Source of the DNA: Raillietiella orientalis
Lineage: Eukaryota
DNA: 64,000 bases
Direction of reading: 5' to 3'
Assembly (NCBI GenBank): GCA_036172245.1
Contig: JAYWIR010000024.1
Location: 2,046,001 to 2,110,000 of the forward strand
This document shows, one piece after another, positions 40,201 through 64,000 of the stretch. The position numbers and the translations under genes were made by a program. How positions within the stretch are numbered: the first letter of the stretch is position 1; every line of letters starts with the position of its first letter. The notes under the pieces are model-generated. The model was not told the DNA's origin. It searched no databases and worked only from the letters and a program-made list of their open reading frames with translations.

Positions 40201-40369
40201 CTTCTTTCCGCAGTAACCTAGGAGACGGAGAACTGCAGTGGAGAACGACGGCTTTTCCAAGTGTGTCTCGCGCAGGGCGCGTGCGGCTTGCCTCACCCTG
40301 ACGAGTCCCGTCCGGGTGGTCCCTTCGTCCCTTCGACAGTTTTCCCCAAGTCGCACAAGGGGTGAGATA

Positions 40370-41734: not shown

Positions 41735-44700
41735 TTTTATGCATTGTGGAAAATTCAGCAACTGAAATTCAAACGGCACCAGGTGTTCACACCATAGCAC
41801 ATCTGTGCCGCCCCTTTGCATATTGATTCCCGGTTCGCGATGCGGTGTTCGGGAATTTCGCAAGATGGAGGAACGGTTCCCGGGAACGAGGATCCTGCCA
41901 GCGCCGAGGTGCCTTGAAGCGTTCTCTTTCGTGCAACCCATTCGTGCAGCACGGCAAGGTAACACCCTTAAGGAGGCAAGAAAACCTTCGCTCTCTAAGG
42001 AGGTGGAGCGTAGACTTGGTCGATCTGTTCCCGAAAAACCTCGTTTTCCCGACATCTTCAGAGTGCGCGTGCTCCTGGGAGGTGCGCACCCAGAAGCCCC
42101 TACTCAAGGTGTTGTGTGGTTCTCCCATGCACCATCCCCCTATCCCGTTTACATCGAGACCAGGGTTTCAGAGAACCTGCATGATCCCCTTCCCTGGTCA
42201 AGGACTGCCGCCACGCGGACCCGCCTGCTTGGTGTCTTTCGACGAACGCGAAAAGGCAGAGCTGCTGCCCACCGTGAAGGTTCACATGAGGGCGAAGTGC
42301 ATTCGTGACGAACGCCCCCGAGGGCAGTGCGAAGCGCAACTGGTTCCTCCTCGAAAAGGCAACGGGTTCGAAACTCCGCGGCGACGTTTCCACGACTGGA
42401 CTGGAGTGTCTGGAGACAGCTCTGCCGCTTCAGAAGGAGGCGAAGAGCTCGGAGCTTGGCCACGGCACTTGTGATGTGAAGTCGGCGGAGGAGACAAAGC
42501 CGAACCCATAGCGCTTACGACCGACTTGGAAGGCGAGAACATAGGTGGATCTACGCGTAACCGGACCCTTCTCAGGTTGCATGGCCGGATGACCGGAGCT
42601 GCGAGGGGGAGATCGACTGCTTCTTGGACTCCAGTTTGCACGAGGAAGCGTGTTTCAGCTTACGCTCGCTTTCTCTTGCAAGAAGGGAAGCATGGTAACG
42701 GAACCAAGGTGGTTTCATCTGTGCGTGGTTGAGTTTTCGAACCTCGTCGAGTGCCAGATAGGGGTGGTTGCCAGGGAAGCGTACTCGAACGAGCATATCT
42801 CGTTCCCATATTGCGACCCCTTTGGCGAAGCGAAACACCGTCGACGCACGTGGTTATCAGGACGACGGCCTCCGTGTCGAATGTTGCAGGAACCGGTGGC
42901 GGAAAGCTGTCACCATACTCGTCCTCGCAACCGGACATCTTCGGGATGGCGGACGAGACGCTGTTTCCATGACTGCTGGCGCCAGCGGGATGTGCACGCC
43001 GCACGGCTTCCGGGGACGTCGGAGCGTCCGCACGGCAGCGTCCTGCACGTTTTCCTGGCCGCCGTTTACGCCTGTGGGTCCGTGCAGACGCACTCGAAGA
43101 TGAGAACTTGCCCTTCGCCGCGCTTCTTCGGCGCCATGCCAGCAGGAATCCTAAACGATCGCGTTGGAGGTCTCCCAGTCTTCTAAAGCATGGGAAGCCT
43201 TCAGCCAATTCGAGAAAGAAAACGCGTGAGCGGAAGCCATCTGGATTTCCTGGAACATGGTTGATGGCACGTACCCTATCGACGATGTGGAAAACGTGCA
43301 CTTGTTGCAATCCGAAGAAGGAATCGCAGGCTTGGGACTCCCGTTCGATGAGTGGGAACACGGAGCAGGGGGTTCTCCTGTGAAAGGTTGACGCGTAGCC
43401 GTAAAGCGTGAGCGCGACGTCATGGGAAGGCTGGCTGACTACCTCATCAACAGCACGTCCGCATGTATCATCTCCCCTGCAGCCAATTCGGAGGAGCCTA
43501 CGGGTGCCACCTATTCCCAGAAAGACGGTGCGCTATTGACGACACTGCAAGGGAGCGCGTGTCGTCCTTCTCCTAGGGGACCGGAGGAAAAAAGTTTAAC
43601 AGATGTTTCCTTTGCCCATCGTGTCTGCTGGAAGGACACCTCTTCCTGGACTGAAGTCTGGATTTTTGGTTCTTTGTTGCTATGCGCTCCTTTTGATCCG
43701 CGCAGAGGGGAAACGGAGCGAAATTCCGGTTTTCGATTGGCTGCCTTGCGATCGCTGCCAGGCATCGCCGTCTTCCAACGCGCGTCTTCGAGCGTCCTGC
43801 AGCTGTCGAAAAGCCCACTCGATTCGGCTGCAGTGGCAATTTCCGTTTCCGAGGACGACTGCACAGGGCAATCGAGGGTGGATGCAAACAGACCCGATAG
43901 GAAAGCTTCCCAGCGTCGATGTTCTGAGAGCACATCGCGGTCGAGAGAGCACGTGCCATTGAGCCACCTCGTCGTGTCCGTGGTTGGGGAGAATGCGCGG
44001 ACGCCCAAGCCACGTAGCCCCAAAGGCAGCAGCTCTCCGAGGGCACACGACGTGCTTCCGCTCCGAGTGACTTCTCTCATCCGGGCCACGTCGTATTGTA
44101 AGCCCCAGGAGCCACTATTCCGGGCCGATTCCATTCATTCTCGTCATTCCCCGAGCAGCAAACGTCTGAATGCAATCATCTGCTCTGTTTCGTATCCAGT
44201 TGGCACCGACGAACTTTTCAATTTGCATAATGACATGCAAAACAGCTCCTGGCTTCTCCCTGAGCCAGGCTTCCCAGACACGGGACACTATCGGCGTCTC
44301 TTTTGCTAACGTGGGCGCGTGCGATGGTTTCGCGACAGCGCAGTTGGTGCCTGGACACACTGGCAGAGAACGAATAGCAAATGAATTGGGATCATAAGCG
44401 ACGGGGAGGGGGAGTAGGAGGGAGAGGTTATTGCGGGCTAGGGAGAGAGTCGTGAATGGTAGCGGGACGACCATGAGGGTGGTGGATAAAGGAAAAGTGG
44501 TTGGCGAGCGGTGGCTGAACGACGAGTCATCCACCGGAAAAATTTCCAGTGGATGACTCTAATTCCCCCGTGTAGCGCTGCCCAGACTTCTGCCTGCGTG
44601 GACACAGTCCACGGGAGACGTGTCGATCGTCTACGTGGGAGATGCGAAGAGTCGCTGAGACTCGCGTTCAACAGGCGCGTCAGAAAGCACACGACCAGTA

Positions 44701-45950
44701 ACGGGAAACAGGGCAGGGTGGTCAGCCGAATCGGAACCTCGAACTGTAGGAGCTCGCAGCTGCCAAACGGAACTTCACGAGGACAAACCCAAAGTCGAAA
44801 CCGGATTTTATTGCTCCAGGGAGACGAGAAAGAAGTCACGCTGGGCACTGCCCGGTTGCTACGAAGTCCCAGCAACGGTGTTAGAAGAGACGAGGTGGAA
44901 GACGAGCCAGTGTCGCAGACTTTGAGTGCCAACTGATGATCCCGTCCGTATCTGCGCCGTTAAGGCAATGTGGGGTAATTGGATCATCAGGAATGGAGAT
45001 CGAGAGAGGAATGAAGAGGTACTGAGAGAGTTCAAAATTGTTAAGTAACCGGTGGAGTGCATCGGAACGGAAATGGTGTTCTCGCACATACAGCATACCC
45101 GAGGTGGCTGCTGGAAGCATTGGATGGGTGAACCTTCGAACACTTTTCCGATAGGGTTGGCGAGAGCAGGGCGATGCAAATGTGTCGAGTGGTGATTTCA
45201 GGGTCGTTTTGTGGAGATAACGGAAACAGACTGGAATTTAAGTTTCCTTGTTCCGAGAGCTGGAAGAAATGGCCATGCAAGAAAGGGAAATGGTTGCTTG
45301 AGTTTCTTCTAGAAGTGGAGGGACTGCGAAAAATCGTCCTGAAAGTCATCACGGGATGATTAATGAGAGTGATGTGAACTGTTGCCTTCGGGAGAGGGAC
45401 AACGTCGAATGTAGAAAATGGTTACCGATCTTGGCCGGTATCGCACGATTCCTTCATCATTTTGTCTCTTAGCTTTTATTCTGCTCCACCGAGCCGCAGA
45501 TTACCCTTCCCAAGGCAACCGTCCACGAAGAATCCTTTTAAAATGTCGAAAAGTAGCCATCCTGATTCCAAATCCCACCAAAACACAAAATGGCGTCCTC
45601 CCGTTTCCACTGATGGAATACCCGCGATGAAAGATTGCGGCCCAATGATCTGAAGCTGCGGATGATGGAAACACTGTGGGGAGGAAGTCTTGGAGAAGGG
45701 CAAAGCGCAACAACTGCTGGAGACGTGGACTGGAAAGGCTTGGCGGTGGGGCGGAGGAAGAATGGAGAACCGCGGATGCAGGAAAGAGTTGAACGTACAG
45801 CAGAGACACCCGAGACAAACGCGTCCGGTAAAGGAGGAGGCAGTTTGTGTGTATTCAGTGCTTGCAGTGGGTTTCCTGTTGGCATCCCCCCCTCGTTCTG
45901 AATTGAAGGATAAGAGTGTCTAAGCTGCAGGAGAAGCTGCGCAAGGCTTC
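41735..45950 (-). mobile_element. Long, heavily decayed Tx1/L1-like element (ORF1 remnant about 45950-45400, APE endonuclease from about 45050, RT about 43400-42500)
   Basis: SFRSLGRNLS..ILCFGGIWN (ORF1-like), LPHIALTAQ (IxxLQET-like), AIPSSDCNK...FSNWLKA (LSLDxxKAFD...WLKxLY-like) and EAVDLPLAAPVIRPCN (KxRxLSLxGRxxxxN-like). Confidence 0.5.
41985..44846. repeat. Left arm of a 2862-bp near-identical inverted repeat
   Basis: Position x pairs with 97799-x. ORF translations on the two arms are essentially identical (e.g. 43422-44309+ vs 54377-53490-), with only a few substitutions seen. Confidence 0.97.
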
Positions 45951-45999
45951 CCAAGTCCTACGATCCTGAATGCACCCATTTGTCGGCGTCTATTCTCTA

Positions 46000-46760
46000 C
46001 GTGGGGATTCGACCAGAAAGACTCCGTGCTATGTACAGGGACCGCAGCCACATGGCCACCAACGCGGACTCCCCAGAGAGATTCTCCTCCGTTGTCCTTC
46101 TTTGGACAATCCCATACATTGGCTCACCAGTAATATGGGGTATCACCTGAAGCGTCGAGGGAGAAACGTTGCACCTCTGTGGGTGGGTTACATGAGACCT
46201 CGTCAATCCTTCAGCTCCGTGTCCCACTCAAACTACTGTTCTGCTGGACCGAGATGCTGGACATCAATTTAAATCCGCAGCTTCCAGAGATAATAACGGA
46301 CAGCTCCACCTTACTCCTAATAGGGGGGGGGAGTCGTGCTCCTGCTGTTCCACTTGGGTCTTCCATGCAACTCCCATCCACATCATTGGACCCTGGAGAA
46401 GAATGGGAGCAGGGAGTTAGCCCAAGAGCCTCTCCTGCGCTTAATTGTGAATTCAGCTTCCCTCCGGCTTCTATGGGAACGTTTCGCAACGACTCCTGGG
46501 ACTCTACTGCGCAACCCGAGAGACGTTCATAAGCGCCTATTCATGCGCGATAGTCTACCGCCAACCGTGTTCCTAGCAGCTGTTTTCTGTCTCTGTGGAA
46601 TGGTGGTGTCCTGGAGCGCTGCCGAAAGAGGCCAAGACGACGAGGTTGTGTTCCTGAGTTCTTCCGAGGCTGCTCCTCGGATGGAAGGTTCCCCTACCTC
46701 CTTGAGGGTGTTTTCTTACCGTTTCGCAAGAATGGGCTTCGAAGGGCATCCTTTCCACGA
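46000..46760 (+). mobile_element. Tx1/L1-like ORF2 3' remnant directly upstream of protease-like gene A
   Basis: LLLFHLGLP...LIVNSASLRLLWERFATT..NPRDVHKRLFMRDSL aligns with the 36590-37140 and 35600-36100 copies. Confidence 0.7.
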
Positions 46761-46962
46761 TCCTCTTACAACGCACCTTGGCGCTGGCAGGATCCTCGTT
46801 ACCGGGAAACGTTCCTCCGTCTTGAGAAATTCCCGAGCACCGCAACACGATCTGGGAATCAATATGCAAGGGCACGGCTCAGGTGTGCTGAGGTGGGAAC
46901 AAGCAACGCCTGCTGCCGTTTGAAATTTCATTTGCCGAAATTTTCACAAGTGCCCTTGGGGA

Positions 46963-46969
46963 CATAAAA
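46963..46969 (+). promoter_or_regulatory. TATA-like box (CATAAAA) of protease-like gene A
   Basis: About 40 nt upstream of ATG 47006. Conserved at 56709-56715 before gene B and at 41741-41735 on the minus strand. Confidence 0.5.
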
Positions 46970-47005
46970 GCAACCCTTGGCGGATCCAGAGGTCAGGCGA
47001 GAGGG

Positions 47006-49677
47006 ATGGCAGCTTCGAAGGCACTCGCGGTTTTATTCTTGGCTCTGACGATGTGAGTTTTTGCAACAACCATTGTAGTGAATTCCTTCCATTTGAATTT
47101 CTTCCACTGGAACCATCATTTTTCTCTCCCTCTCTCTTTCTTCCAGATCAGTTTTTTCTGAAGGAAAGACTGTAAAAATAAACCAGATGTATTTCAATGT
47201 AAGACTCATCCTTCTTGTAAATGCAGAGAGATAACAGGAGATTCTTTCTTTTTCAAGGGAACATACGTTGTGCACATGATGACCAACAGGATACAATATA
47301 GCATGCTTTTGGATAGCTGGTCTGACGTTGTGTGGCTTCCATCATCGGGATGCTCCTCGGATTTTTGCAGTAATGGGGACTCGACCAAGAGGGAAAGCAC
47401 ATTGCGATTTCCATTGCTTCATAGTGCATCGCTATCGATACGATGTTTCAAAGCTGGCAAGGAACCCGGATGCTAATCCCAAAAAGGAGTATTATCTGCT
47501 AGATGTTAAGCTGAATGGAAATCAACGCATCTTCAACTTTGTGAGTTTGTGACTGCAAAGTTGAAATTTCGTGAGAGTGGACCAACAAGAGGCCTCTCTC
47601 GTGGGTCATCTGCGTACATGTTGCATTTAAATCGGATCCGTTTCAGAAATTCGGACAATGGATTTCCACATGGAATATTGCGGTTTTCGATATAGATCCC
47701 CAGCCAAGCAGTTATATCAATTTTCTGTTGACGGACGGTTTCTTCGGCATAAATCCGCCAGCTCTGAGTTCCTTTCTGAGGAATCATAACCTGGAGCAAA
47801 TCGCTTACATGGAATTCGATCGGTAAAGCAAGTCTTCGAAAGCTTTGCAAACACGTCAAGCATCTGGATCCAGGAAAGAACGAAAGACGAGTGTTGTTTT
47901 GGGAGAATCGTACCCATTTCGAAATCCGAAACGCTGTGCCAACTACCCCATAAACAAAAAAAATCAGCTCTATGAGATTCCCATTCGCAGGTAAGTGCAA
48001 TCCTTCTTGCAGTCTGAAATCGGAATTGTCTGTTGGCTCCTCGTTTCCTCAGTGCAAGTTGATGACAGTAGCTCGAAGGGTAGCGTGTAGAATGTCCTTC
48101 TAACGGGTTGCAGAATTCGAAGATTCTGCCAACTAAGGAATTTCGGAGTCATTGCTTAAAGATGCGGCTCAATCTTTAAGAACGTGCGAGCAATTGGGGT
48201 CCCAGAAAGACGACCGCAACTGACTGCCGCAATTGGGGATGGAATTGGGATCCTCGTTCGCAGCTCCTCGCGTCCCTCTAGTTTTCTTCGTTTTTTCCTC
48301 CTCTGAGAAGGAGCCGTTCGGTTGCCACCTTGAAGGCATCGGAACGTCTCGTCTGCTCCGCCGCAGGAAAGCTCTCAAGACTTTTCTGCTGTCACGCAGT
48401 CGACCGAAATCCGGGTAAAGCGGCGACTTTGACCACTTTCGCAAGGTCAGGGAGGGAAAACTCGGGCTCACTTGCGATTCCCTACTGCTAGTCAATGGGG
48501 CATCCGACCACGGATATGAGGGTGCCCTGCCAACGCATCCCCCATTCTTGATCCATTCTTAGCGTCATCAAGCAAAAATGCTCTAAACCTTCCTCTACGT
48601 CGGTCGCTTTTATGGGCGTTCGAAAATGCAACGCGGGTGAGGTGAGAGGATGCCGTGGCAACACAGCCACCAACGATGGCAGTCCGAGAGCTATGACCAC
48701 CACGAATACTCCTTTTCAGCATCAAGATCGGCAAACAAGAAATGTGTCAGGGGATATGCGTTGCTTATTTGGATACAGCCCTTCCAATCGCTCAAGTTAG
48801 TCAGAATTTTATGAAACAATTCCGGAGACACATTAAACCGCTGGATGTGGACCACTTGTACGGGGTGAGTCTCCAGATCTGTTCCCATCCCTAGCAGCGT
48901 CCAGCTATTGAACAGCCTGCGAGCCCCTGGAATTCATGGCCCAGTGTAACCTACACATTTTTGAATGGTGCGGAGCTTGAGATGAAACCACAGGACTATG
49001 TCTTCGATATCGTGGTGAGTAGCGAAAACCGACAAACTTCCACTCGAATGAATAAGCAGTTATCCAACTAATCGTAGTGGCAGCTATGCAGCTAATTGTA
49101 ATATTAACTCTTCCTCCGATTGCAGTAATTAACTATGAGACTAAGCCATCCGCAGTGCCGACTGAGTTGCGATCTTTGAAACCAATGCATCGTATAAAGA
49201 GTTAGAATCCACCAAAGGGCAAGTTGAACGGGCAAAAGTTGCTTTCTGTCGATTGCTTCGTGATGTGCGCGACGAACGAAGAGGAGCTGTTGCTTCCTTC
49301 ATACGTGCTTGCACGTCCCGTTATCCCCGAAGAGTCACTTTTCTCAAGGTATAATTGCCATTTGTGCCAACACGCTTTTGCTGCGTGAGAACCGAAAACT
49401 CGAGTCGCACGTGGTTTACACGCCTGCCTTTTCCTCCCTCGTGTTTCCCGGAAATCGGAAGAGTGGCCATAATCCTAAACCATCGTGATGGGAGATTGGT
49501 ATTCGACTAACGCCCGAATTTTATTTTCAGCTGAGCCGCGGCACTGTTCCTGTGCTGGGATTCGCGACCGGATTGAGGTCGGCCGATGAAATGTGGACGA
49601 TTTCCCAGAAGATGATGACATACTTGATCACGCAGATCGATTTGAAAAGCGAAACCCTCACGATTCATGTGAAGTGA
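47006..49677 (+). CDS. Secreted pepsin-like (A1 aspartic peptidase fold) protein A, probably non-catalytic. Exons: 47006-47052, 47147-47198, 47258-47369, 47425-47540, 47647-47822, 47874-47990, 48720-48864, 48916-49014, 49531-49677. 336 aa
   Basis: All-GT-AG splicing gives an open frame. Signal peptide MAASKALAVLFLALTISVFS; YSMLLDSWSDVVWLPSSGCSSDFC (vs FDTGSSNLWVPSxxC); RYDVSK; DGFFGI; VVLGE; IKIGKQEMCQGICVAYLDTALP (vs CxxGCxAIxDTGTS); LEMKPQDYV; WTISQKMMTYLITQIDL. Exon phases match copy B. Confidence 0.88.
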
Positions 49678-50718
49678 TGCAGACATGCTCGGATTGTGGG
49701 TGGTCACTGATTTGCATCCCAATTAAAAAAGACGATTCCTGCTGTTTGTCTTTTCAATTGGCATTCAGTGGCATCTCGAAGCTTCCAGCAGCCTTCCGAT
49801 AGAGTATTCCTCCAAATGAAGACCACATTGCGCAAAACACATGTGTGAGCAGGGAGGCAATTTGTGAGAATAGGGTAGGGGTTCATTCGACGCAGATCAA
49901 TCCACCCCCGAACATATTCTAATGCAACATGAGCTTGCTGCTGTCGCTTGGTAACAACTCCAGCAAACACCAGTAACAGGCACTTGGGAGTAAGATTCCC
50001 TGTCCTTGTGGTAATTTTGTTTCAAGAGAATGAAGAGAAAGGGTTCTCTCTTCTCTCACTGGAAACGAGGCGTCTCCGGGAAACCATGACAACGACTCCA
50101 GAGTCTGGATTATCAGGGACGGTAGAATCAAACTACAAAAAAATCCTGGAAATCGCACAACATCAATGCAAGTGGAAGAAGGGTTTGCCAAAGGGCATCC
50201 AGGGCTCTCGCCAAACACAGATCCCAAATCCATCAGATTGCGTGCTCAACTGGAACGATCCGGAAGCATTTCTGGCCTGTAGAGCTCACTGACACTCCGC
50301 CGCTGCTTTCAATCGCAAGCGTCCGTGCGTGGTCACCCGAACATTCGGGATCGTCTGGCGCCTTCGTAACGATGATGTGTGTGCAACTAATAGGTTGTGG
50401 TTTGGGGAATCTTTAAGCAGCCTGGAACAACAACCACTTCGCAATTCTACTGCGAAAATCTTTGAAAACAGCGGCGTGTTATTAGGAACTGACTAAGTGG
50501 AACGCTGAGGTCAGGATATGTTCTCCTTCACGACAACACGTGCCTACACACTGCAGTCTGGACATTCCAGACAATTAAGGAATTCAAATGGGAACTTCTT
50601 GATAATCTTGCATTCCTGACCTTGAGTCCAGTGACTATCACGTTTTCCCACACCTCCCAGGCATTCTATAGAAATTGGAGTTCATCATCCGGGAGAGAGC
50701 TGCTTGCTCTGCCACTCC

Positions 50719-52185
50719 TAGGTCAGCCTATTTCTCCTCACTCAGAAGCAGTAGGTCAGCAGGATGAGGACCGACTCGGTGACCAGGGGAGCCACTCCTA
50801 CCGCTGCCAGGACCGCGAGTCCCATGCACGCGCCTTCCATGGACGCGAAAGACTGACCTCTACGCTGTTTGCTCCGCCGTCGCAGTTGCGAGACTTTTCC
50901 TCTGAATCCCTCCTTTCTCCTCTTCTGGCAGCAGCAGGGCGGATCCTCCCTTCGGAGGGTTCTGCCCATCCGTGATGCGGATCGAATTCACGACCAGGAA
51001 TTCGCTGGATTTCTTTTCTTCCGGAGGGTTCCTCCTTCTCCTGCCTAGAGAGATTTCTGTGCCTTCAGGATGGCTTGGCACTTGACACATCGCTGGCTTG
51101 CACTTGGGAAAGCATAAGGTCACTAGAGCGCGCAACTGGACCACATCCGTAGCGGGAAACTTGAAGACCGTCATGTGCATCTAGAGATCCCTTCAGCTTC
51201 CAGAGGACCACTTGAGTGGTCTTACGATCGAATCCACGGGGCATCCTTGCTCGTCGATGAGGTGGATCTCTCTCGAGTCCAGGTCGCCCACCGCTGTCAT
51301 GTCCCTGATGGAGATCTCGTACGGAGTACCCTCGTCCTTGATCTCGAACCGCACCAGCAGAGGGTCACCCACTTCGGCTGCAGATACCTCGTTGTTCTTC
51401 AGGTCGTAGATCTTCATGAGCACGTTCGGCGAGTGCAGCGCCGACTTCTCCTCGGACAGGGTGGCAGCGACCCCTCTCACCTTCAGACCCATGCCGTTGG
51501 TGACGGTCGTGTTGAAGAGCTGGTAGTGGCACTTCACGATGAGCTGCAGGTCTTCGTCGGTCAGGACGACGTCGTGGTGCTGAATGACGATCTCGTTGCT
51601 GAACAGCCTTCCAGCTCCTGCTTCACGTTGCAGTCCGGGCTGCCGTACGGCATGTGCAGCTCGAACTCCAGGCTTTGGTCCACGTCCACGGCGCATCCTT
51701 CCGGGTTGGGGAGTGCATAGTTCTTCCCGTTGAACAGTTTGCTGCTCAGCACCTTCACGAGCATCTTCGTGTCATGGCAGTGGACGCTCACGTTGTAGCA
51801 AGGCCCTAGCTCGTACGTTGAGGATTCCGGTATATCCAGGTAGGGCTGCTTCAGATGCAGCAACGTGGCCTCCGAGTGGTGGCTGATCCTGCAGGTGTTC
51901 AGGTCCATGTCGTTGTAGTCGAATGAGTGGCATCTGTAAGGTGCCGTCATGCAGAGTCGGTGGCACAGGTCCAAGCTGTCCACGTTAGTGAACACAGAGT
52001 CCACAGTCTTTATGATCTTCCCGATTATATTCTGGAAGCGGCACTTCTTCACAGGCTCCCTGACGCAGTTGTTCTCCAGGTATTCGATGTCTTCTCCTTT
52101 TTCGAGTCCGACGAAAGACTTGTGCGTGTGACGATCCTTATCCGAGATGCTGCACGACTGATCCTTGCTGTTGAAGTTCGCCGAT
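50719..52185 (-). pseudogene. NompA-like PAN/apple + zona pellucida (ZP) domain gene, large terminal exon, disabled
   Basis: Acceptor tttcttccag just above 52185. PAN motifs (EYLENNC; CHRLCMTAPYRCHSFDY), ZP motifs (FSNEIVIQHH, EVGDPLLVRFEI, LIDEQGCPVD, FKFPATDVVQLRALVT), furin site GRRRR and a TM helix. One-nt frameshift at about 51606, in-frame TGA (about 51193) and TAG (about 51181), and a further shift before the TM. Confidence 0.85.
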
Positions 52186-52259
52186 CTGGAAGAAATCCAT
52201 CCGCAATAAGAATCCAGTCATCATAAATAAGGATAGGTGCACTCAACGAGCAATAGGAA

Positions 52260-52500
52260 TCGTTACATCAGGAATGCAAACCGATGTTCTAACAAAACCT
52301 GGATGGATTCGTCGACGAACAAAACGAACCCATCACCTCGATCGAGCAGAGAATCACGAAGAAAAGAAAAGTCCAAGACCTTTTCTTGTTTCTTGGATGT
52401 CCACATAGTCGCCTCTGAGCAAAACCATCCTTCCCTCCACCTGGAAGCCCATGAAAAAACAATGACTTCCCAACACGGATCGCCTTTCAGCAAAGTGAAT
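52260..52500 (+). mobile_element. Possible Penelope-like RT fragment
   Basis: KEKSKTFSCFLDVHIV...EAHEKTMT resembles ExExxxxLxFLDVxI...VYRKxT. Short and degraded. Confidence 0.25.
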
Positions 52501-52952
52501 GGATCACAGGAAGCCTCCGTGCAACTGATGCTGTTTGCATCCTATGCGTCTTTCCCAAAAGGAACGAACCGAACTAATTCGGACAAAGAGGGAATCGAGA
52601 AGAGCACACACCAGCACGAAGGAAAAGCTCCTGAACGTGCGCTCTTGCTCAATCCGAGGACAAATGGTTCTCTGATCCGAAGTGAGAGAGAAAAGCAGAT
52701 ACGTGAAAGCAGATATGTAACTCGGTTTTCCAGACAAAGCACATCTTCTCCAGTGTGCTCCATTTCAGCAGGATGAGTATTCCGAAATACAACTAGCGAT
52801 TCTTTCTCTGAGGAGGAGGGCTTGGCTAGGCCAGCTAGAGAGATTTTCTTTTCTTATTTTCTTCATTCTTCTGAAAGAAAGAGTCTCTCGAACATGTTAT
52901 CGAGTTGCCCCAGGCAGCAGTCTGGAGTACTCATTACTTGATCCCGATGCAG

Positions 52953-55814
52953 GCCCAGCGTGACTTCTTTCTCGTCTCCCTGGAGCAATAAAATCCGGTT
53001 TCGACTTTGGGTTTGTCCTCGTGAAGTTCCGTTTGGCAGCTGCGAGCTCCTACAGTTCGAGGTTCCGATTCGGCTGACCACCCTGCCCTGTTTCCCGTTA
53101 CTGGTCGTGTGCTTTCTGACGCGCCTGTTGAACGCGAGTCTCAGCGACTCTTCGCATCTCCCACGTAGACGATCGACACGTCTCCCGTGGACTGTGTCCA
53201 CGCAGGCAGAAGTCTGGGCAGCGCTACACGGGGGAATTAGAGTCATCCACTGGAAATTTTTCCGGTGGATGACTCGTCGTTCAGCCACCGCTCGCCAACC
53301 ACTTTTCCTTTATCCACCACCCTCATGGTCGTCCCGCTACCATTCACGACTCTCTCCCTAGCCCGCAATAACCTCTCCCTCCTACTCCCCCTCCCCGTCG
53401 CTTATGATCCCAATTCATTTGCTATTCGTTCTCTGCCAGTGTGTCCAGGCACCAACTGCGCTGTCGCGAAACCATCGCACGCGCCCACGTTAGCAAAAGA
53501 GACGCCGATAGTGTCCCGTGTCTGGGAAGCCTGGCTCAGGGAGAAGCCAGGAGCTGTTTTGCATGTCATTATGCAAATTGAAAAGTTCGTCGGTGCCAAC
53601 TGGATACGAAACAGAGCAGATGATTGCATTCAGACGTTTGCTGCTCGGGGAATGACGAGAATGAATGGAATCGGCCCGGAATAGTGGCTCCTGGGGCTTA
53701 CAATACGACGTGGCCCGGATGAGAGAAGTCACTCGGAGGGGAAGCACGTCGTGTGCCCTCGGAGAGCTGCTGCCTTTGGGGCTACGTGGCTTGGGCGTCC
53801 GCGCATTCTCCCCAACCACGGACACGACGAGGTGGCTCAATGGCACGTGCTCTCTCGACCGCGATGTGCTCTCAGAACATCGACGCTGGGAAGCTTTCCT
53901 ATCGGGTCTGTTTGCATCCACCCTCGATTGCCCTGTGCAGTCGTCCTCGGAAACGGAAATTGCCACTGCAGCCGAATCGAGTGGGCTTTTCGACAGCTGC
54001 AGGACGCTCGAAGACGCGCGTTGGAAGACGGCGATGCCTGGCAGCGATCGCAAGGCAGCCAATCGAAAACCGGAATTTCGCTCCGTTTCCCCTCTGCGCG
54101 GATCAAAAGGAGCGCATAGCAACAAAGAACCAAAAATCCAGACTTCAGTCCAGGAAGAGGTGTCCTTCCAGCAGACACGATGGGCAAAGGAAACATCTGT
54201 TAAACTTTTTTCCTCCGGTCCCCTAGGAGAAGGACGACACGCGCTCCCTTGCAGTGTCGTCAATAGCGCACCGTCTTTCTGGGAATAGGTGGCACCCGTA
54301 GGCTCCTCCGAATTGGCTGCAGGGGAGATGATACATGCGGACGTGCTGTCGATGAGGTAGTCAGCCAGCCTTCCCATGACGTCGCGCTCACGCTTTACGG
54401 CTACGCGTCAACCTTTCACAGGAGAACCCCCTGCTCCGTGTTCCCACTCATCGAACGGGAGTCCCAAGCCTGCGATTCCTTCTTCGGATTGCAACAAGTG
54501 CACGTTTTCCACATCGTCGATAGGGTACGTGCCATCAACCATGTTCCAGGAAATCCAGATGGCTTCCGCTCACGCGTTTTCTTTCTCGAATTGGCTGAAG
54601 GCTTCCCATGCTTTAGAAGACTGGGAGACCTCCAACGCGATCGTTTAGGATTCCTGCTGGCATGGCGCCGAAGAAGCGCGGCGAAGGGCAAGTTCTCATC
54701 TTCGAGTGCGTCTGCACGGACCCACAGGCGTAAACGGCGGCCAGGAAAACGTGCAGGACGCTGCCGTGCGGACGCTCCGACGTCCCCGGAAGCCGTGCGG
54801 CGTGCACATCCCGCTGGCGCCAGCAGTCATGGAAACAGCGTCTCGTCCGCCATCCCGAAGATGTCCGGTTGCGAGGACGAGTATGGTGACAGCTTTCCGC
54901 CACCGGTTCCTGCAACATTCGACACGGAGGCCGTCGTCCTGATAACCACGTGCGTCGACGGTGTTTCGCTTCGCCAAAGGGGTCGCAATATGGGAACGAG
55001 ATATGCTCGTTCGAGTACGCTTCCCTGGCAACCACCCCTATCTGGCACTCGACGAGGTTCGAAAACTCAACCACGCACAGATGAAACCACCTTGGTTCCG
55101 TTACCATGCTTCCCTTCTTGCAAGAGAAAGCGAGCGTAAGCTGAAACACGCTTCCTCGTGCAAACTGGAGTCCAAGAAGCAGTCGATCTCCCCCTCGCAG
55201 CTCCGGTCATCCGGCCATGCAACCTGAGAAGGGTCCGGTTACGCGTAGATCCACCTATGTTCTCGCCTTCCAAGTCGGTCGTAAGCGCTATGGGTTCGGC
55301 TTTGTCTCCTCCGCCGACTTCACATCACAAGTGCCGTGGCCAAGCTCCGAGCTCTTCGCCTCCTTCTGAAGCGGCAGAGCTGTCTCCAGACACTCCAGTC
55401 CAGTCGTGGAAACGTCGCCGCGGAGTTTCGAACCCGTTGCCTTTTCGAGGAGGAACCAGTTGCGCTTCGCACTGCCCTCGGGGGCGTTCGTCACGAATGC
55501 ACTTCGCCCTCATGTGAACCTTCACGGTGGGCAGCAGCTCTGCCTTTTCGCGTTCGTCGAAAGACACCAAGCAGGCGGGTCCGCGTGGCGGCAGTCCTTG
55601 ACCAGGGAAGGGGATCATGCAGGTTCTCTGAAACCCTGGTCTCGATGTAAACGGGATAGGGGGATGGTGCATGGGAGAACCACACAACACCTTGAGTAGG
55701 GACTTCTGGGTGCGCACCTCCCAGGAGCACGCGCACTCTGAAGATCTCGGGAAAACGAGGTTTTTCGGGAACAGATCGACCAAGTCTACGCTCCACCTCC
55801 TTAGAGAGCGAAGG
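52953..55814. repeat. Right arm of the 2862-bp inverted repeat (decayed Tx1-like ORF2 on + strand, continuing to about 56460)
   Basis: Reverse complement of 41985-44846. In addition, 56466-56695 matches 41740-41975 at slightly lower identity. Confidence 0.97.
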
Positions 55815-56756
55815 CTTTCTTTCCCGGAAGTCCAGGATGCCTGCATTTGTGGGAACCTCGAAATGCTTCTGCTTCTGCCGGTGCAGCGAGGGGAGAGAAG
55901 GATTGTCCGTCCCATCCCTGAGAGGATTACGTTCTCTATGCCCATCAGCTGATTGCTGCTGATCTCTTCGAGGAGCGCCTCGTGCAGAGTGCGCGCGCGC
56001 AAACTCCCAGTGCTCGCGCTTCTCATGCGCTGAAGGTTCGAGCGGTCGCAGACCAGAAATTTCCTGATGCTGCTTCAGGATGCACGTCGTGCCCGAACGC
56101 AAATGGAGCAGTCCAAGCCTTCCAGGAAGATCCGCTTTGCAGAGTGAGTGGCGTGCTCTGACCTCCGCATCCAATCCTACCCAGACTGAGAAGGGAAAGC
56201 GCGGAGATGGTTCATTCCTTCTTCTTCGTACGGGTAACGTTGCCCTCCCTCCAATAGAAACGTGCGGGATGGAGAAGGGCACGCGGAAACAGCATCTCTC
56301 TGGAAAATCATGGGGAAAAAGAAAACCACTTCAAAGTTTCCCGAAAGATTGGACGGAGTAGTACGCCTTCCGAATGAGACTGCGCTCCCGACGGCGGCCG
56401 TCCACCCGGGAATGTATTCCTGAGCTCTTGCGAGGTTGCTCCTCGGATGGAAGGTTCCCATGCCTCCCTAAGGTTGTTTCCTTGCCGTGCTGCAGGAATG
56501 GGCTGCACGAAAGAGAACGCTTCAAGGCACCTCGGCGCTGGCAGGATCCTCGTTCCCGGGAACCGTTCCTTCATCTTGCGAAATTCCCGAACACCGCATC
56601 GCGAACCGGGAATCAATATGCAAAGGGGCGACACAGATGTGCTGAGGTGTAAACACCTGGTGCCGTTTGAATTTCATTTGCCGAAGTTTTCACAAGTGCC
56701 CTTGGGGACATAAAAGCAACCCAACCCTTGGAGTATCCAGAGGTCAGGCAAGCGGG

Positions 56757-59460
56757 ATGGCGGCTTCGAAGGCACTCGCTGTTTCAGTTTTGGCTCTAAT
56801 GATGTGAGTTTTTCAGTAACCACTCTGAAGCATTCCTTTCATTTAAATTTTATTCGTTTGAACCATCATTTCCCCTCACTTTCTTTCAGATCACTTTTTC
56901 CTGAAGAAGAAGCTCTCATCATAGCACAGCAGATTTCCTTCAATGTGGGACTCATCTTTCTCAGGATTGCAGAGAGATAACAGGAGATTCTTTTTTTCAA
57001 GGGAGCATATGTTGCGGAAATAACGGTCAAGAAAGAATTCTACAGTGTGCTCTTGGATAGCTGGACTGACACCATGTGGCTTCCATCATCGGAATGCTCC
57101 TCGGATTATTGCAGTAATGGGGACTCGACCGAGAGGGAGAACATGGGACGACTTCGCTTTCTTTGCAGAACGCCGCCGCACATACGATATTTCACAGTTG
57201 CCAAATAGCTCTGCAACAGGTCAACAGAAGTCTTATCGTTTGTTGTATGTTAACATGGATGGATATCAGCACAGGTTCAAATTTGTGAGTTTGTGGCTGC
57301 CAAGTTGAAATTTCGGGAGAGAGGAGGGAAATGAGTCCTCTCTTGAGGACCATCTGCGTTTATGTTGCATTCAAATCGGATCCATTCCAGATATTCGGAC
57401 GCCAAGTTTTCACGAAAACTATAGCGACCTTCAATATAGATCCGCAACCAAGCAATTTCATCACTTTACTGAATAACGACGGGTTCTTCGGCATCAATCC
57501 GTCAGCCTTGGATTCGCTTCTGAGGAGCCATAGGATAGAGCCAATCGCCTACATGGAGTTCGACAGGTAATGCAAACCTTAGAAAGCATTGCAAAGACGT
57601 CAAACATCTCGATCCAGAAATAAGAAAAAGGGGACTGTTGTTTTGGGAGAATCGTATCCGTCTCCAAAACCAAGTCTCCAGGCCACCTACCAGATAGACA
57701 AAAGAGAAACTCTCTATAAGATTCAACTGCTCAGGTAAGTGCCCTCTTTGCAGTTTGAATTCGGAATTGTCTGGTGGCTGCTCGTTTCCTAATTGCAAGT
57801 TGATGACGGTAGCTCGAATGGTAACATGCGTAGAAAGACCTTTCAACGGGTTGCAGAATTCAAAGATTCTGCCAACTGAGGAATTTCGGAGTCATTGCTT
57901 AAAGATGCGGCTCAATCTCTAAGAGCGTGCAAACATGTGGGATTTCAGAAAGACGACCGCAGCTGACTGCGGCAGCTGGGAGAGATCTTTCGCTGCTCTC
58001 CGCGTCCTTTTAGTTTTTTCCGTTTTTTCGTCCTTCGAGAAGGAACCTTTCCGATGCCGCTTTGTAGCATCTAAACGGCTCGCCAACTCCTCCACAGGAA
58101 GGCTCACAAGACTTTTCTACTATCACGCGTCCGACCGAAGTACGAGTGAAGCGGGGATCGGGGATCCGAAGCGATCACTGTCGCAACGGCTGGGAGGGAA
58201 AACCCTGGAACCTCCCCACGATTGCTGGGAGGGACCATGAAGGGTTCACACGCGATTCTCGATTGCTGGCAACTGACTGCGGACATGAGGGTGCCCTACC
58301 GACGCATTTGCCAATCCTGATCCATCCTTAGCATTACCTTGCGAAAGGACTCGAATCCTCCTTCAAGTCGGCCGCTTTTCTAGATGTTCGAAAAGGCGAC
58401 TCTGGGTGCGAAGAGAGGATGCCGTGGCAACACACTGCCTCCAGCGCTAATGGTCCGAGAGCAATGACTACGAAGGTTTCTTCTTTTCAGCATCAAGGTC
58501 GGCAAAGAAGAAATGTGTCAGGGGATATGCGTTGCTTACTTGGATACAGCCCTTCCAATCGCTCAAGTTAGTAACAAGTTTATGGAGCAATTCAAGAAGC
58601 AAATTAAACCTCTGGGTGTGGATTACTTGTACGGGGTGAGTCTCCAGATCTGTTCCAAAGTCCTATCAGCGTCGAGCTATTGAACAGCCTACGAAGAAGT
58701 TGGATTCATTCCCCAGGGTAACCTACACATTTGTCAATGGTGTAGTGCTCGAGATGAAACCACAGGATTATGTCTTCAATATCCTGGTGAGTAGCGAAAA
58801 TCCACAAAATTCAACTCAAATAAATAAGCAAATATTCAACTAATTGTAGTAGAAACTATTCAACTAATTGTAGTACCAGCCTTTCAACCAATAGTAGTAG
58901 CTAACTATTACACTGATCAATCGAAAGGGCTGACCGATTTGCGGTCGTTCAAGTCACTGCATCGTTTAAAGAGTTAGGATGGACCAAATGGCAAGCCAAG
59001 TGACAAAAACTGCTCTTCTTCGTGATGTTGGCGACGACCAAAGAGGAGAAACTTCACTCTTGCTTCACACCGAAGTGCTTGCATGTTCCGTTATCTACGA
59101 AGGGTCACTTTCCTTTTTCCCCAGAGTAGAAATTCCCGTCTGAACGGTCCGTGACACTATTTTGTAGTGTTCGAACCGAAAACTCGCGTCGCACGTGGTT
59201 TACACGCCTGTCTTTTCCTCGCTCGTGTCACCCACAAATCGGAAGAGTGGACGAAATCCTTAACCATCGTGGTGAGAGATTACGATCCGACTAACATCGG
59301 ACTTTCCTTCCAGGTGAGTAAGAAAGACGTCCCTGTGCTGGGGTTTGCCAGCAGATTGAGGTCCGACGACGAAATGTGGACGATTTCCCAGAAGATGATG
59401 ACATACTTGATCACGCAGATCGATTTGAAAAGCGAAACCCTCACGATTCATGTGAAGTGA
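56757..59460 (+). CDS. Secreted pepsin-like (A1 aspartic peptidase fold) protein B, probably non-catalytic. Exons: 56757-56803, 56890-56944, 57002-57113, 57169-57284, 57391-57566, 57618-57734, 58491-58635, 58688-58786, 59314-59460. 337 aa
   Basis: Open spliced frame: MAASKALAVSVLALMISLF; AYVAEITVKKEFYSVLLDSWTDTMWLPSSECSSDYC; TYDISQ; NDGFFGINP; GTVVLGE; IKVGKEEMCQGICVAYLDTALP; FPRVTYTFVNGVVLEMKPQDYV; WTISQKMMTYLITQIDLKSETLTIHVK. A branch-like gactaac precedes the last acceptor. The intron 2 donor (GTGGGA) is weak but aligns with GTAAGA in copy A. Confidence 0.88.
58830..58880 (+). repeat. Short tandem duplication (about 24-nt unit) in intron 8 of gene B
   Basis: tattcaactaattgtagta occurs twice; a degenerate version is in copy A at about 49060-49100. 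Confidence 0.7.
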
Positions 59461-60849
59461 TGCAGACATGCTCGGATTGTGGGTGGTCACTGATTCGCAT
59501 CCCAATTAAAAAAGACGATTCCTGCTGTTTGTCTTTTCAATTGGCATTCAGTGGCATCTCGAAGCTTCCAGCAGCCTTCCGATAGAGTATTCCTCCAAAT
59601 GAAGACCACATTGCGCAAAACACATGTGTGAGCAGGGAGCCAATTTGTGAGAATAGGGTAGGGGGTTATTCGACGCAGATCAATCCACCCCCGAACATAT
59701 TCTAATGCCACATGAGCTTGCTGTTGTCGCTTGGTAACAACTCCAGCAAACACCAGTAACAGGCACTTGGGAGTAAGATTCCCTGTCCTTGTGGTAATTT
59801 TGTTTCAAGAGAATGAAGAGAAAGGGTTCTCTCTTCTCTCACTGGAAACGAGGCGTCTCCGGGAAACCATGACAACGACTCCAGAGTCTGGATTATCAGG
59901 GACGGTAGAATCAAACTACAAAAAAATCCTGGAAATCGCACAACATCAATGTAAGTGGAAGAAGGGTTTGAGTCCAGCTCTTCCCATACACGAATGCCGA
60001 ATCCGATAGCTTGCTTGCCCAACGGGAACGGGCAGGAACAGTTCTGGTTCCGCCGGTGCTTTCAATCGCGATTGTCCGTTCGTGAACACGCCGAACTTTC
60101 GGGGGTCGCCATGCGCGTTCGCAGCGACCTTTCCCGGTTCTTTCTTTTCCGTTTCACGGTGGTGCGAAAAACAAACTGCTTCCCGTTTGCCATGGGGTCC
60201 TCATAGATCATCCCGGCATACGTCAGCCGACCGAAACCACAGCGCGCGGCCTCTCCGTGCAGCAACGGGACTGACGAAAGCAAGCAAGAAGCGAGCAAGA
60301 AGACGTCCTCCCTTTCGGCTTCCTGTACCATGTCATTGTCAGACGCATCCTGCTCTCTAACTAGGGATAATCATACAAGGAATGATAGTTCGTCTTTCGG
60401 AATCATCAACCACAATTCCTCATCACACCTGTTCGTGATTACTCTTCCTCTCAGCACTCTGGAATAATGACCGCAACGAAACATTCGTTGCTGACTGCTG
60501 CAGCAGCTAAGGGGCTCTTCAAGTTGTCTCAAGTGATTATTCTGCGATAGCGCGCACGATATCACAAGATGCCGAAACGGAGCTGGAATTGCACCTGTTG
60601 TCTTCCACCCTTCTAAATGTCCAAGAGTTGGACACGCACTCTCGCGACGCATTCTGATGCTGGAAATGTCGGCCACCTTGATCTCGATGCAAGCGGACGG
60701 TGAGACGCACTTCACCATGAAACCACTGCGTTGGAAACTCCTAAAGTGGCCGTTCGAACAGTAGGGCCGACAGGGGAACTGCGGGTCGATTCTCTTCAGC
60801 TTCTCTGGTAGCCGAAGATCCCTATCTTTCCAGCATAGCTGCAGAGCTT

Positions 60850-63005
60850 GAAGGAGATCCCAGCTCTCTCAGGTCATTCCGGAGAAATTCGAATGCATTT
60901 TCACAACCGGAGCTTCTAACTCTTGACACGAAAGGAACGGGAGCCCTGCTTCCTCCTATGAAGAGAGCTCCGAGGGAGCAGAGCCCTTCTTAAAGTCTGG
61001 AGAGGGAATCCCCCAAGAAGGGACTTAGCCAGCTCCATTTTTACAACCATAGGGGAATCACGAAGCGATTCTGCGTTCCTTGAATCCAGGAGGGACGCCA
61101 GAGTCAACATCCAATCTCGGTCAGTCAACGGGGCCATCCAGTTCTCGGATTTGGCCACCTGGATTAGCCGAACGGCCTCGTCTTCCGGGGGGGGAACTAA
61201 AACCCCAAGATGTACCCATTTTGTATGGGTCGATCCTTCACGTGAAACCGCAACGCGCGGAGCAACGCGCGGAGACCGCCGTCTTTCTGCGGTCTCACTG
61301 CCGCCAAGGCGAGCATACTGCACCCATGATTCCGGAATTGAGACTTACGGTCCTTCCCCCCTGCAGACGCGCCTGCTGAGAGCACCGGGACGCCACCACT
61401 TTGCATCGCCAAGGCTGGGCGACAGAGGAAGCAGGACAAAGGACGTTCAGTGTGAAGCAGCACCTCAGAAGATCTTTTCGACTGTCGAGGGGGCGCAGCA
61501 AAGAGGCGCTTGCATGCGCTCCGGAGGCCACGGCATTCCGGCAGCGGGTGCGTGCGTGCACGATCTGGAAGATGCTTGCCCCCTTGAGCTCAGCTTCCAT
61601 CTTTTCCCGCACGGGCAGTGGGGTCAGGGCCGACTCCGCCTCGACCACGAGTGCCATCGTTCTCACTGCCAACACTGTGAGTCCCCGTGAACACCAATGC
61701 AAGGCACACTTTCTCAGGCAGCTGCGCGCGATCTGCAGTCTTCTACACGAAAGCGCTGCCGGCTGCTGCACCGCACTTGAATGCCGCCTTACAAGGAGCA
61801 CTGCGTTCCCGAAAGGAAGGAAATCAGCAGAAAATTTGGATTTCTTCGGCCAACACCTGCACTCGCGGAGACAAATGATACGGAGGTTCTTTCTGTTCCC
61901 AGAATCCCGTCATGGGTAATTCTCTCCTCATAAGAAGAATTCAGTATCCCAAAGGAACTCCAGCCTCGTTTCTAAGTAAAATACATCCGGGGTTTGTCGA
62001 TTTGCAGTCCCGACCAGGAGGAGTGGCTCTACACCACGCCGTGCGAGCCACTCCGACCTACAGTAGCCGGGAACCCCATGCACACGAGGAGCATGGGGCG
62101 CAAAGGTCGTTCACGTTTGTCGTCCTCGATTCGCAGAGCAGGCAACTCGCTCCCCATTGCCGGAATGCTCGTGGCACTGGAGGACAGGATGAAAGCAGCA
62201 AGCAGCCCACTCTTGTTACGGACCCCAAGCTTCTTCGACCTGGCTTGGTGCCCGAGGGCGAAGGCGAACGAAGCAAGTGTGGCCCGTGAACAGTCCTGGC
62301 AGCGAAACGAGGGGAGCCTGTAGGGAAGATGGGCTGTTCGCCTCGCCTTGCATGCTCGGTACCGACGATCCTCTTTGTATGCTCAGGATCCAGGAAACGG
62401 CCAGGCGGTGCAAGGAGCGAAGATCGTTAGGCGACGCAGACGCAGCACGTCAGGAAGGAAAGGGCGTGTCCGACTGCAACAAGGGGTCCGGGATATGCGC
62501 TGGGACATCGACTGACCGTCAAGAACCAGGTGCTCCCAGAACTACAGAATGGGACGCGGAGCATCGCGTAACGGCGAAAGGAGTGACATTGAGCTCCTCT
62601 TCCTTCCGGCTTGCAGGGAGCACAATGGCCCGGAAAGATAGCGGGAATGAAGCGAGCAGAACTGTGCTCGACTTTTTTCCCAGCACGCTGCTTGCCCGGG
62701 ATGCAGGAAGATTGGACGAAAAGTGGAGGAGTGCAGATGGCCGACGGTTCCTCGCGCGCTTCCAAGGCAGCCTGGTGGCGACTCCTCCCAGCTCATGCCC
62801 TCGCTACGCACGGTCCCTAGGAAGGGCTCCTCGTTGCGGTAGACGACGATTCTGCCACCTCCTCTGGAATGCTCCGATTTTGCATTCCGCTTCAGTTTCT
62901 GCTCCCTTTTCGGAAAGCAGGGGGGAATCCATCGGGAAGAGGGCTGAGAGGGCGAGTGCTGGACCAGCGCTGCACAAGCACACCAGCTCATTGAAAGCGA
63001 GCTGA
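60850..63005 (+). mobile_element. Decayed Tx1/L1-like ORF2 (RT to zinc finger)
   Basis: QSRSVNGAI (SxVxVNG), CTHFVWVDP (PLSPxLFxxxxEP-like), ECRLTRSTAFPKGR, and a terminal APRCGRRRFCHLLWNAP (zf-RVT). Confidence 0.5.
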
Positions 63006-63049
63006 GTTCGCAGCGACTTGGTTCCGCAGTGTTGGCGGTGCCCAGCCCT

Positions 63050-63700
63050 AATCGCTACGTCACTCGTTCGGGCACGTCGGCCCCTGGCGCTCGCCGCCTG
63101 GCGACGATCTCGGGAGAGTCGGAAGAGATGCTGGAACCTGTGGGAAAAGAACTGCGATATGTACCGAGTCCTGCAGGCTGCGGATGCTTCCTGAAACGGC
63201 GACCTTCAGCAGCGTGCAGTTTCAGTTGCCAAGGGGGAGGATCTCGCGACGTCTCGATCAATTCGTCGCCACCCTTGCACGAGATCCTCCGTCGGAGGAA
63301 GCAGATGGGAGCCCTGACGCGGTCACAGACTACTCGATTCGGTTTCGTTTCGAGGTGGCTTCGAAGAACGGTGCTGTCCGCGAGTTGGACTTGTGGGACG
63401 TGAGCTGGTGAGAGTTCAACAAGTGGAGCGATCGCACAAGACAAGTAGCACATCCACCCCACTTTTCGCAGCCACTCTCAGGTCAAACGCGCCCTGTGCA
63501 TGTGCGTTGGCATTCCTTTTTATGTGCGTGAGGCCGACCTCAGATGGTGCGAAGGTGCGTGCTCTTTCTTTCGGACGATGTCCCCACTCGGTTCGTGCCA
63601 GCACCCACCCGGCTTTCCTGGAGTCCGCACTGGGCTGTCTCTTTACAGTGATTGGTTCGCCTTTTCGGACGAGCGTTTGCTATCTCCTCTTCAGAGGTTC
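63050..63700 (-). mobile_element. Possible non-LTR endonuclease-domain remnant
   Basis: RDPPPWQLKLHAAEGRRF resembles the GxGxWKLNxSLLxDxxF motif that follows L1-type APE domains. Confidence 0.3.
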
Positions 63701-64000
63701 ACGCAGTCTGAAAGCCGAGTAATCCGCTTTCAGGCACCATCCCGAAACAGGCGCTGGAATTCTCTCTGACATCTAGCGGGTAGTCCTCAGGCTGCGTGAT
63801 CCAAAGGTGGAACATGAAAAACGTAGGATAGATTCTAGATTTCTCCTGAATTCGATAACCTCCATCGCTAAAGAGGAAAAAAGGGGGTGATTTGAATATT
63901 CAGAGGGCTTCTTGGCTAATTTGCGTGCGTGTGCGTTTTGTCTGTGGCTGAATCTCCGTGCTCCATCTGCAGCCTGGAGTATGCCGTTGGGTATATCTCG

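Follow-up and report, generated by a model that had tools for sequence, protein, structure and literature searches.

A tandem pair of divergent, putatively non-catalytic pepsin (A1) homologs in a 64,000-nt stretch of the Raillietiella orientalis genome

The DNA analyzed here, referred to as the window, is a stretch of 64,000 nucleotides (nt) from Raillietiella orientalis (NCBI GenBank assembly GCA_036172245.1, contig JAYWIR010000024.1, positions 2,046,001 to 2,110,000 of the forward strand), and all coordinates are given within it. It contains two genes on the plus strand, gene 1 (47006-49677) and gene 2 (56757-59460), whose predicted products of 336 and 337 amino acids (aa) are divergent members of the pepsin family of aspartic peptidases (A1). 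Exons were assembled by script-tested junctions from sequence alone. Each gene consists of nine exons; all 16 introns of the pair begin with GT and end with AG, internal stops are absent from both copies (0 in either), and the phases following exons 1-8 are 2,0,1,0,2,2,0,0 in gene 1 as well as in gene 2. Introns 1-8 measure 94/86, 59/57, 55/55, 106/106, 51/51, 729/756, 51/52 and 516/527 nt (gene 1/gene 2). A nine-exon pair of this length, with shared phases and no disabling lesion, had been proposed in an earlier sequence-only reading of the window, and we could rebuild it at the same positions. The duplicated unit extends from 46647 to 50187 and from 56413 to 59970; according to tblastn, the window contains neither a third copy nor further A1-like pieces. 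The parts of the two genes are as follows, all on the plus strand.

46963..46970 (+): TATA-like CATAAAAG of gene 1, 43 nt 5' of the ATG as read from the sequence; putative promoter element
47006..47052 (+): gene 1 exon 1, ATG and most of the predicted signal peptide (MAASKALAVLFLALT..); donor GTGAGT
47147..47198 (+): gene 1 exon 2, end of the signal peptide, then the N-terminal strand of the mature fold (..EGKTVKINQMYFN)
47258..47369 (+): gene 1 exon 3, N-lobe active site with DSWSD (47312-47326), the Trp39 equivalent (WLPSS) and CSSDFC (47351-47368)
47425..47540 (+): gene 1 exon 4, flap region, aligned with low confidence
47647..47822 (+): gene 1 exon 5, N-lobe psi-loop DGFFGI (47734-47751)
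47874..47990 (+): gene 1 exon 6, inter-lobe region (VVLGESYP..)
48720..48846 (+): gene 1 exon 7, C-lobe active site with CQGIC (48745-48759) and DTALP (48772-48786)
48898..49014 (+): gene 1 exon 8, aligns with the A1 C-lobe
49531..49677 (+): gene 1 exon 9, MWTISQ (49591-49608) and stop codon TGA (49675-49677)
49722..49727 (+): ATTAAA, possible polyadenylation signal of gene 1
56709..56716 (+): TATA-like CATAAAAG of gene 2, 48 nt 5' of the ATG; putative promoter element
56757..56803 (+): gene 2 exon 1, spliced model
56890..56944 (+): gene 2 exon 2, 3 nt longer than its counterpart in gene 1, the sole exon indel
57002..57113 (+): gene 2 exon 3, DSWTD (57056-57070) and CSSDYC (57095-57112)
57169..57284 (+): gene 2 exon 4, spliced model
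57391..57566 (+): gene 2 exon 5, DGFFGI (57478-57495)
57618..57734 (+): gene 2 exon 6, spliced model
58491..58617 (+): gene 2 exon 7, CQGIC (58516-58530) and DTALP (58543-58557)
58670..58786 (+): gene 2 exon 8, spliced model
59314..59460 (+): gene 2 exon 9, MWTISQ (59374-59391) and stop codon (59458-59460)

In the preferred gene models, exon 3 starts at 47258 in gene 1 and at 57002 in gene 2, and exon 7 ends at 48846 and 58617, respectively. The exon 3 acceptor comes after a polypyrimidine run (...ttctttctttttcaag); the exon 7 donor reads GTGGAC in gene 1 and GTGGAT in gene 2. A 2-nt change in a T-run is the sole frame-shifting difference between the copies, and in these models it falls within the polypyrimidine tract of intron 2. 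A perfect GTGAGT is located 18 nt 3' of the preferred exon 7 donor; its use would shorten intron 7 to 33/34 nt and add six codons. Models of 351 and 349 aa (exon 3 acceptor at 47231/56984; intron 7 donor GTGAGT at 48865/58636) were rejected: their frames are open, but they contain introns of 32-36 nt and also demand differing exon 3 acceptors in the two copies. The models of 336 and 337 aa are preferred because the candidate introns of best consensus in the neighboring diaphanous gene measure 44-51 nt, and because they obtain a higher A1 profile score. Both alternative splice choices leave the frames of both copies open. Intron 8 of gene 2 contains a small tandem array (58833-58909; 3.2 copies of a 24-nt unit).

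The relationship to A1 peptidases was assessed for the spliced proteins with a local profile, a surrogate for Pfam PF00026. Candidate loci came from a degenerate motif scan of metagenome contigs (at least 120 loci) and from a motif scan of genome contigs (5 loci). Of these 125 loci, 42 carry two D[TS]G[TS] motifs within a complete open reading frame (ORF) of 330-600 aa and were used to build the profile, while the other 83 were short, cut or over-long and were dropped; none of the five genome-contig loci passed the full-length ORF filter. All 42 profile ORFs match PF00026 (E <= 3e-81). The spliced proteins score 23.5 and 35.1 bits against this profile (best of 1000 shuffles: 9.5), and the 351/349-aa models 19.7 and 33.4 bits (shuffles <= 5.1); the unrelated controls, i.e. 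527 window ORFs, 123 real proteins and 2 reversed sequences, all remain at or below 2.3 bits. A comparison with the A1 profile by hhalign yields a probability of 98.6% (E 1.1e-14) over 328 columns with 16% identity. The alignment is colinear: DSW and DTA land on the two DTG motifs, and the propeptide of the template is unmatched. In exon 3 of gene 1, the hidden Markov model alignment pairs FDTGSSnLWVPS with LLDSWSDVVWLPSS. When exon 7 alone was compared with the ESM Atlas, the top match (0.95) was a cluster in which 78% of the members carry PF00026, and the PF00026 set accounted for 25 of 30 matches. Judged by the full-length profile match, far above shuffles and real-protein controls, the A1 homology already claimed in the sequence-only reading is real and spans both lobes.

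Closer relatives did not emerge. Homolog searches with exons 5 and 9 as queries returned no longer protein at E <= 10 (3 and 27 word-sharing candidates, respectively). A profile of exon 7 matched three protein representatives at E <= 0.001; two of them are tandem-repeat proteins with repeat-inflated scores, the third came with no listed stretch, and none is a relative. The earlier description of the pair as lineage-specific agrees with the lack of a close relative in large protein libraries, but the queries were exons of only 48-58 aa and the evidence for this part is weak. Within the literature library searched, no paper joins DSW with aspartic and DTG.

The hallmarks of A1 peptidases include two Asp-Thr/Ser-Gly motifs, as described in passages of PMC3116508. 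In both genes, the profile alignment identifies retained equivalents of Asp32, Asp215, Ser33, Thr216 and Trp39, the last being a Trp seven residues past the Asp in DSWSDVVW and DSWTDTMW that is aligned to the W of LWVPS. The Gly of the hallmark motif is replaced in both lobes of both proteins: Gly34 by Trp (DSW) in the N-lobe, and Gly217 by Ala in the C-lobe, followed there by Leu-Pro (DTALP) with Leu in place of the usual Thr/Ser. The hydrophobic-hydrophobic-Gly motif is kept in the N-lobe (FFG in DGFFGI) and lost in the C-lobe, where WILGD is replaced by MWTISQ, so that ILG becomes TIS and the psi-loop Gly a Ser. Equivalents of the disulfides Cys45-Cys50 (CSSDFC/CSSDYC) and Cys206-Cys210 (CQGIC) are present; the third pepsin disulfide is absent, with no Cys pair past DTA in either gene (total Cys: five in gene 1, four in gene 2). 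The exon 4 region has no Tyr-Gly-x-Gly (YGxG) flap signature; the Tyr75 column is aligned to Leu with a Tyr 1-2 residues upstream, at an alignment confidence near zero.

The hydrophobic N-terminus predicts a signal peptide and, with it, secretion. From the predicted signal peptide to the opening strand of the mature fold there are only about 13 residues, and exon 2 aligns to this first strand of the mature enzyme, not to a propeptide. Because exon 2 corresponds to the first mature strand and the template propeptide is unmatched, a prosegment of 40-50 aa has no place in these proteins. The calculated isoelectric point (pI) is basic (8.9). Several of these features had been listed before, namely DSW in lobe 1 and DTA in lobe 2, the exchange of WILGD for WTISQ, the loss of the third disulfide with the first two kept, and a missing propeptide with a gap of about 15 residues; apart from the slightly shorter gap, we find all of them as described, the motifs in both genes, and DSW and DTA on the DTG sites of the profile.

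Inactive A1 homologs are known from several lineages. According to parts of PMC9541408, they include Bla g 2, Per a 2 and Lma-p54 of cockroaches, and pseudoproteases occur also in ticks, mites and mosquitoes. The Bla g 2 type (MEROPS A01.950) is a secreted arthropod protein of pepsin fold with both DT/SG motifs substituted and is regarded as inactive (passages of PMC9541408 and PMC3116508). Our pair shares with the Bla g 2 group the arthropod-type character, the predicted secretion, the pepsin fold by alignment and substitutions at both DT/SG motifs, but differs in its DSW and DTA motifs and in having only two disulfides; the likeness is one of described features, and in the Protein Data Bank (PDB), exon 3 is matched best by a fungal-type A1 chain and by 'putative cathepsin D' rather than by Bla g 2. 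The ruminant pregnancy-associated glycoproteins (PAGs; MEROPS A01.971) are a multi-copy family with nine-exon genes, many of them with catalytic-centre substitutions that possibly preclude activity (passages of PMC2682831). Nine-exon genes, multiple copies and catalytic-centre substitutions are common to the PAGs and our pair; the PAGs, however, are mammalian and placenta-specific, whereas the pair is arthropod-like and without a propeptide. PAGs keep the propeptide and the three pepsin disulfides. PMC3116508 mentions proposals that both PAGs and Bla g 2 serve to bind peptides.

With canonical A1 enzymes (pepsin, cathepsin D), the pair has in common the predicted bilobal fold, a colinear alignment of about 330 columns, Asp32/Asp215, Trp39, the N-lobe psi-loop, the Cys45-Cys50 and Cys206-Cys210 equivalents and the nine-exon structure (the latter according to passages of PMC2682831). 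It differs from them in Trp at Gly34, Ala at Gly217, the C-lobe psi-loop Gly, the flap signature, the third disulfide, the propeptide and the pI of 8.9. Among the ESM Atlas neighbors of exon 7 is also a cluster (0.90) with TAXi_C, a domain of the plant TAXI-type xylanase inhibitors (TAXi_N/TAXi_C); these belong to a plant lineage, and no specific similarity to the pair emerged. In TAXI proteins, the pepsin fold is reused as a non-catalytic binding protein. The two products combine a pepsin fold, predicted from the profile alignment, with substituted DT/SG motifs, as inactive A1 homologs do; by this alignment, the pair is a new and very divergent addition to them.

The comparison of the two copies indicates how the genes have evolved since their duplication. 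Their exons differ by a single indel (in-frame, 3 nt), against 12.5 expected from the 20 intron indels (P=5e-5). Neither copy contains a stop codon (P=0.0012-0.0024 under simulated neutral change), and the splice dinucleotides agree at 32 of 32 bases (P=5e-4, given the mismatch rate of the introns); these probabilities have to be read with the caveat that the locus was chosen for follow-up because its frames were open. The top third of A1-conserved columns holds an excess of residues on which the two copies agree (odds ratio 3.3-3.6, Fisher p 3.5e-5 to 6.5e-6), as tested without the last 31 residues, the presumably gene-converted tail; the clustering is also seen when this tail is included. 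The most divergent exons by amino acid identity are exon 4, which covers the flap (36%, 14/39), exon 2 (41%) and exon 6 (46%). The 5' flank at 46900-46995, which holds the TATA-like CATAAAAG, is 95% identical between the copies (83/87 aligned nt). Hence, the reading frames appear to have been maintained despite a divergence of about 24%, and the genes look fast-evolving; in our view, purifying selection acts on the fold, and the loops change no more slowly than silent sites.

At their 3' ends, the copies are far more alike: 49617-50117 (+) and 59400-59900 are 97-100% identical from ~30 codons before the stop to ~500 nt into the 3' flank (503/510 identical in the flank alone), whereas the remaining duplicated unit reaches only ~72-90%. 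This tract was probably produced by gene conversion; a young repeat shared by both copies would be the alternative. The tract also contains long antisense ORFs without a Pfam match. A third copy of the 5' flank is present in inverted orientation at 41741-41989 (-), with 92.8% identity to the flank of gene 2 (56450-56699) and 82% to that of gene 1 (46765-46953); it stops ~55 nt short of the expected ATG, and tblastn found no adjoining A1-like exons.

The remainder of the window does not bear out the setting described in the sequence-only reading, in which the pair lies hidden amid heavily decayed DNA: besides a 99.8% inverted repeat, it contains an intact-looking formin gene, a PAN-domain gene and a nicastrin/M28-like exon. 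What stands of the earlier interpretation are the A1 homology, the motif losses and the maintained frames. Among 298 ORFs of at least 75 aa from the whole window, only formin, nicastrin-like and PAN ORFs matched Pfam.

~15884-19676 (+): compact diaphanous-type formin gene; Pfam Drf_GBD, FH3 and FH2, and tblastn matches with insect and Daphnia diaphanous
24991-25374 (+): nicastrin/M28-like exon; Peptidase_M28 and Nicastrin large-lobe, E 1.5e-8 and 4.9e-6
51196-52217 (-): PAN-domain gene between the two paralogs; Pfam PAN, E 5e-13

The FH2 exon of the formin gene is ~50% identical to diaphanous of many insect orders and of Daphnia, with none closer among the 120 best matches listed, which points to an arthropod-like, probably pancrustacean genome that apparently lacks an annotated close relative. 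This gene is embedded in AT-rich DNA (GC 29-40%); the right half of the window has a GC content of 48-58%. The exon at 24991-25374 probably belongs to a nicastrin-like gene. By eye, a ZP-like region adjoins the PAN domain, where Pfam gives only a weak match (Cuticlin N-terminal, E 0.26); the gene may correspond in its make-up to the PAN/ZP proteins of the arthropod apical matrix. The arms of the inverted repeat (41975-44851 and 52949-55824; 2.9 kb, 99.8% identity) flank gene 1 together with the PAN-domain gene; the repeat must have arisen by duplication very recently, or else it is an artifact of the assembly; the arms could allow inversion of the interval between them. The segments 28000-46600 and 60000-64000 are GC-rich and possess many long ORFs in all frames, with no Pfam match above threshold. 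The Pfam scan of window ORFs recognized no remnants of transposon proteins, and Rfam and tRNA scans of the window returned nothing.

Taken together, we favor, with a probability of roughly 0.6, the interpretation that the two genes are tandem paralogs of a divergent, non-catalytic A1 branch, whose secreted products would bind a ligand in the cleft without cleaving it. Secretion, expression, a binding function and a lack of proteolysis are what we infer here. According to this model, each gene would encode a product of ~38 kDa that begins with a signal peptide, lacks a propeptide and adopts a bilobal pepsin fold, stabilized by two short disulfides beside the former catalytic loops. The protein would be secreted without a zymogen stage, and its catalytic centre would be occluded or remodeled. 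Binding rather than cutting is made the most likely mode by the replacement of Gly34 by Trp and of Gly217 by Ala, the Leu that follows this Ala, the loss of the C-lobe Gly and the loss of the flap signature; the remodeled cleft, together with variable loops, may hold a peptide or another ligand uncleaved, as has been proposed for Bla g 2 and the PAGs. Both copies keep the fold-critical positions and change elsewhere at about the silent-site rate, which fits diverging ligand specificities. A bolder version, which we think doubtful, goes further: the pair may represent an undescribed arthropod subfamily of propeptide-less pepsin-fold proteins in which Trp34 plugs the catalytic centre and diversifying selection acts on the flap and the surface loops, giving a secreted recognition or decoy module whose origin is independent of Bla g 2 and the PAGs. 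The targets of such a module might be microbial or dietary proteins, or it might act in chemical communication.

A number of results weigh against the favored interpretation of a maintained, non-catalytic branch. Pfam Asp matched none of 10 single exon-bearing ORFs at E <= 1, as the exons are too short and too divergent; the exon 5 query gave no usable match in the ESM Atlas and nothing with phmmer in the PDB, exon 7 a single PDB match to an unrelated chain (E 1.5), and exon 3 eight weak ones. The best of these eight is the fungal-type A1 chain (E 0.31), and two 'putative cathepsin D' chains follow at E 1.5; all three align at their own DTG site. Two junctions have alternative solutions, and the intron 7 donor is the weaker one in the preferred model. 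Both catalytic Asp are kept, so that residual activity is possible on sequence grounds. Finally, inter-copy mismatch amounts to 23.7% in exons and 21.1% in introns, the differences per codon position are 71/71/95 (chi-square p=0.088), and the ratio of nonsynonymous to synonymous divergence is near neutral (Ka 0.27, Ks 0.34, Ka/Ks 0.81; bootstrap confidence interval 0.60-1.09, corrected for transition bias). We do not use the Nei-Gojobori Ka/Ks of 0.56, which an excess of transitions biases (200 transitions to 138 transversions in introns).

The uniform divergence of exons and introns, the almost uniform codon-position differences and a Ka/Ks interval spanning 1 would suit unexpressed or recently silenced relics, i.e. 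young pseudogenes, whose open frames owe something to the freedom in choosing splice sites. In the same direction point the 2-nt T-run indel, which needs a different acceptor under one of the models, the exon queries that found no relative in protein libraries, and the structural instability of a locus with a 99.8% inverted repeat and a conversion tract. Yet we consider silenced genes unlikely: exons show a clear deficit of indels (1 vs 12.5 expected), stops are lacking from both copies (P about 0.001-0.002), every splice dinucleotide is retained, replacements shun the A1-conserved columns, the proximal promoter segment is conserved, and the preferred model, by placing the 2-nt indel in the polypyrimidine tract of intron 2, requires no rescue. 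In bovine PAG-1, Ala at Gly34 is held to be inactivating, and this bears on the notion that the two proteins do work as aspartic peptidases, by way of a non-canonical active site, and are secreted in an already active state. Both Asp, Ser33/Thr216, Trp39, the N-lobe psi-loop and the two disulfides close to the active site are indeed kept; nevertheless, with Trp and Ala replacing Gly34 and Gly217 within the hallmark Asp-Thr/Ser-Gly motifs (passages of PMC3116508), TIS instead of the C-lobe hydrophobic-hydrophobic-Gly, an unrecognizable Tyr75-Gly signature in the flap and no propeptide, we regard such activity as very improbable. It is just as far-fetched that the gene models are incomplete, with additional exons (for a propeptide or a C-terminal extension) or another start outside the predicted structure. 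The way in which the models were assembled and the two ambiguous junctions speak for this idea, but both copies have retained the ATG, the signal-like peptide and the TATA-like box, exon 2 matches the first strand of the mature enzyme, the stop codon and ATTAAA come after the last A1 strand, and no more A1-like pieces were detected by tblastn in the window.

For the A1 family, the pair opens no long-standing question, because cockroaches, ticks, ruminants and plants are already known to have inactive homologs for which binding roles were proposed. Inactive A1 homologs of arthropods and mammals are described in passages of PMC9541408, PMC3116508 and PMC2682831. The active-site solution is an unusual one: both Asp are kept, Gly34 has become Trp, Gly217 has become Ala, and the zymogen propeptide is gone. 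If expressed, the two genes would be an independent case in which a protease fold gave up catalysis and persisted as a rapidly evolving secreted protein. They may be of use in comparing the origins of pseudo-proteases and in marking a locus that is dynamic and duplicating.

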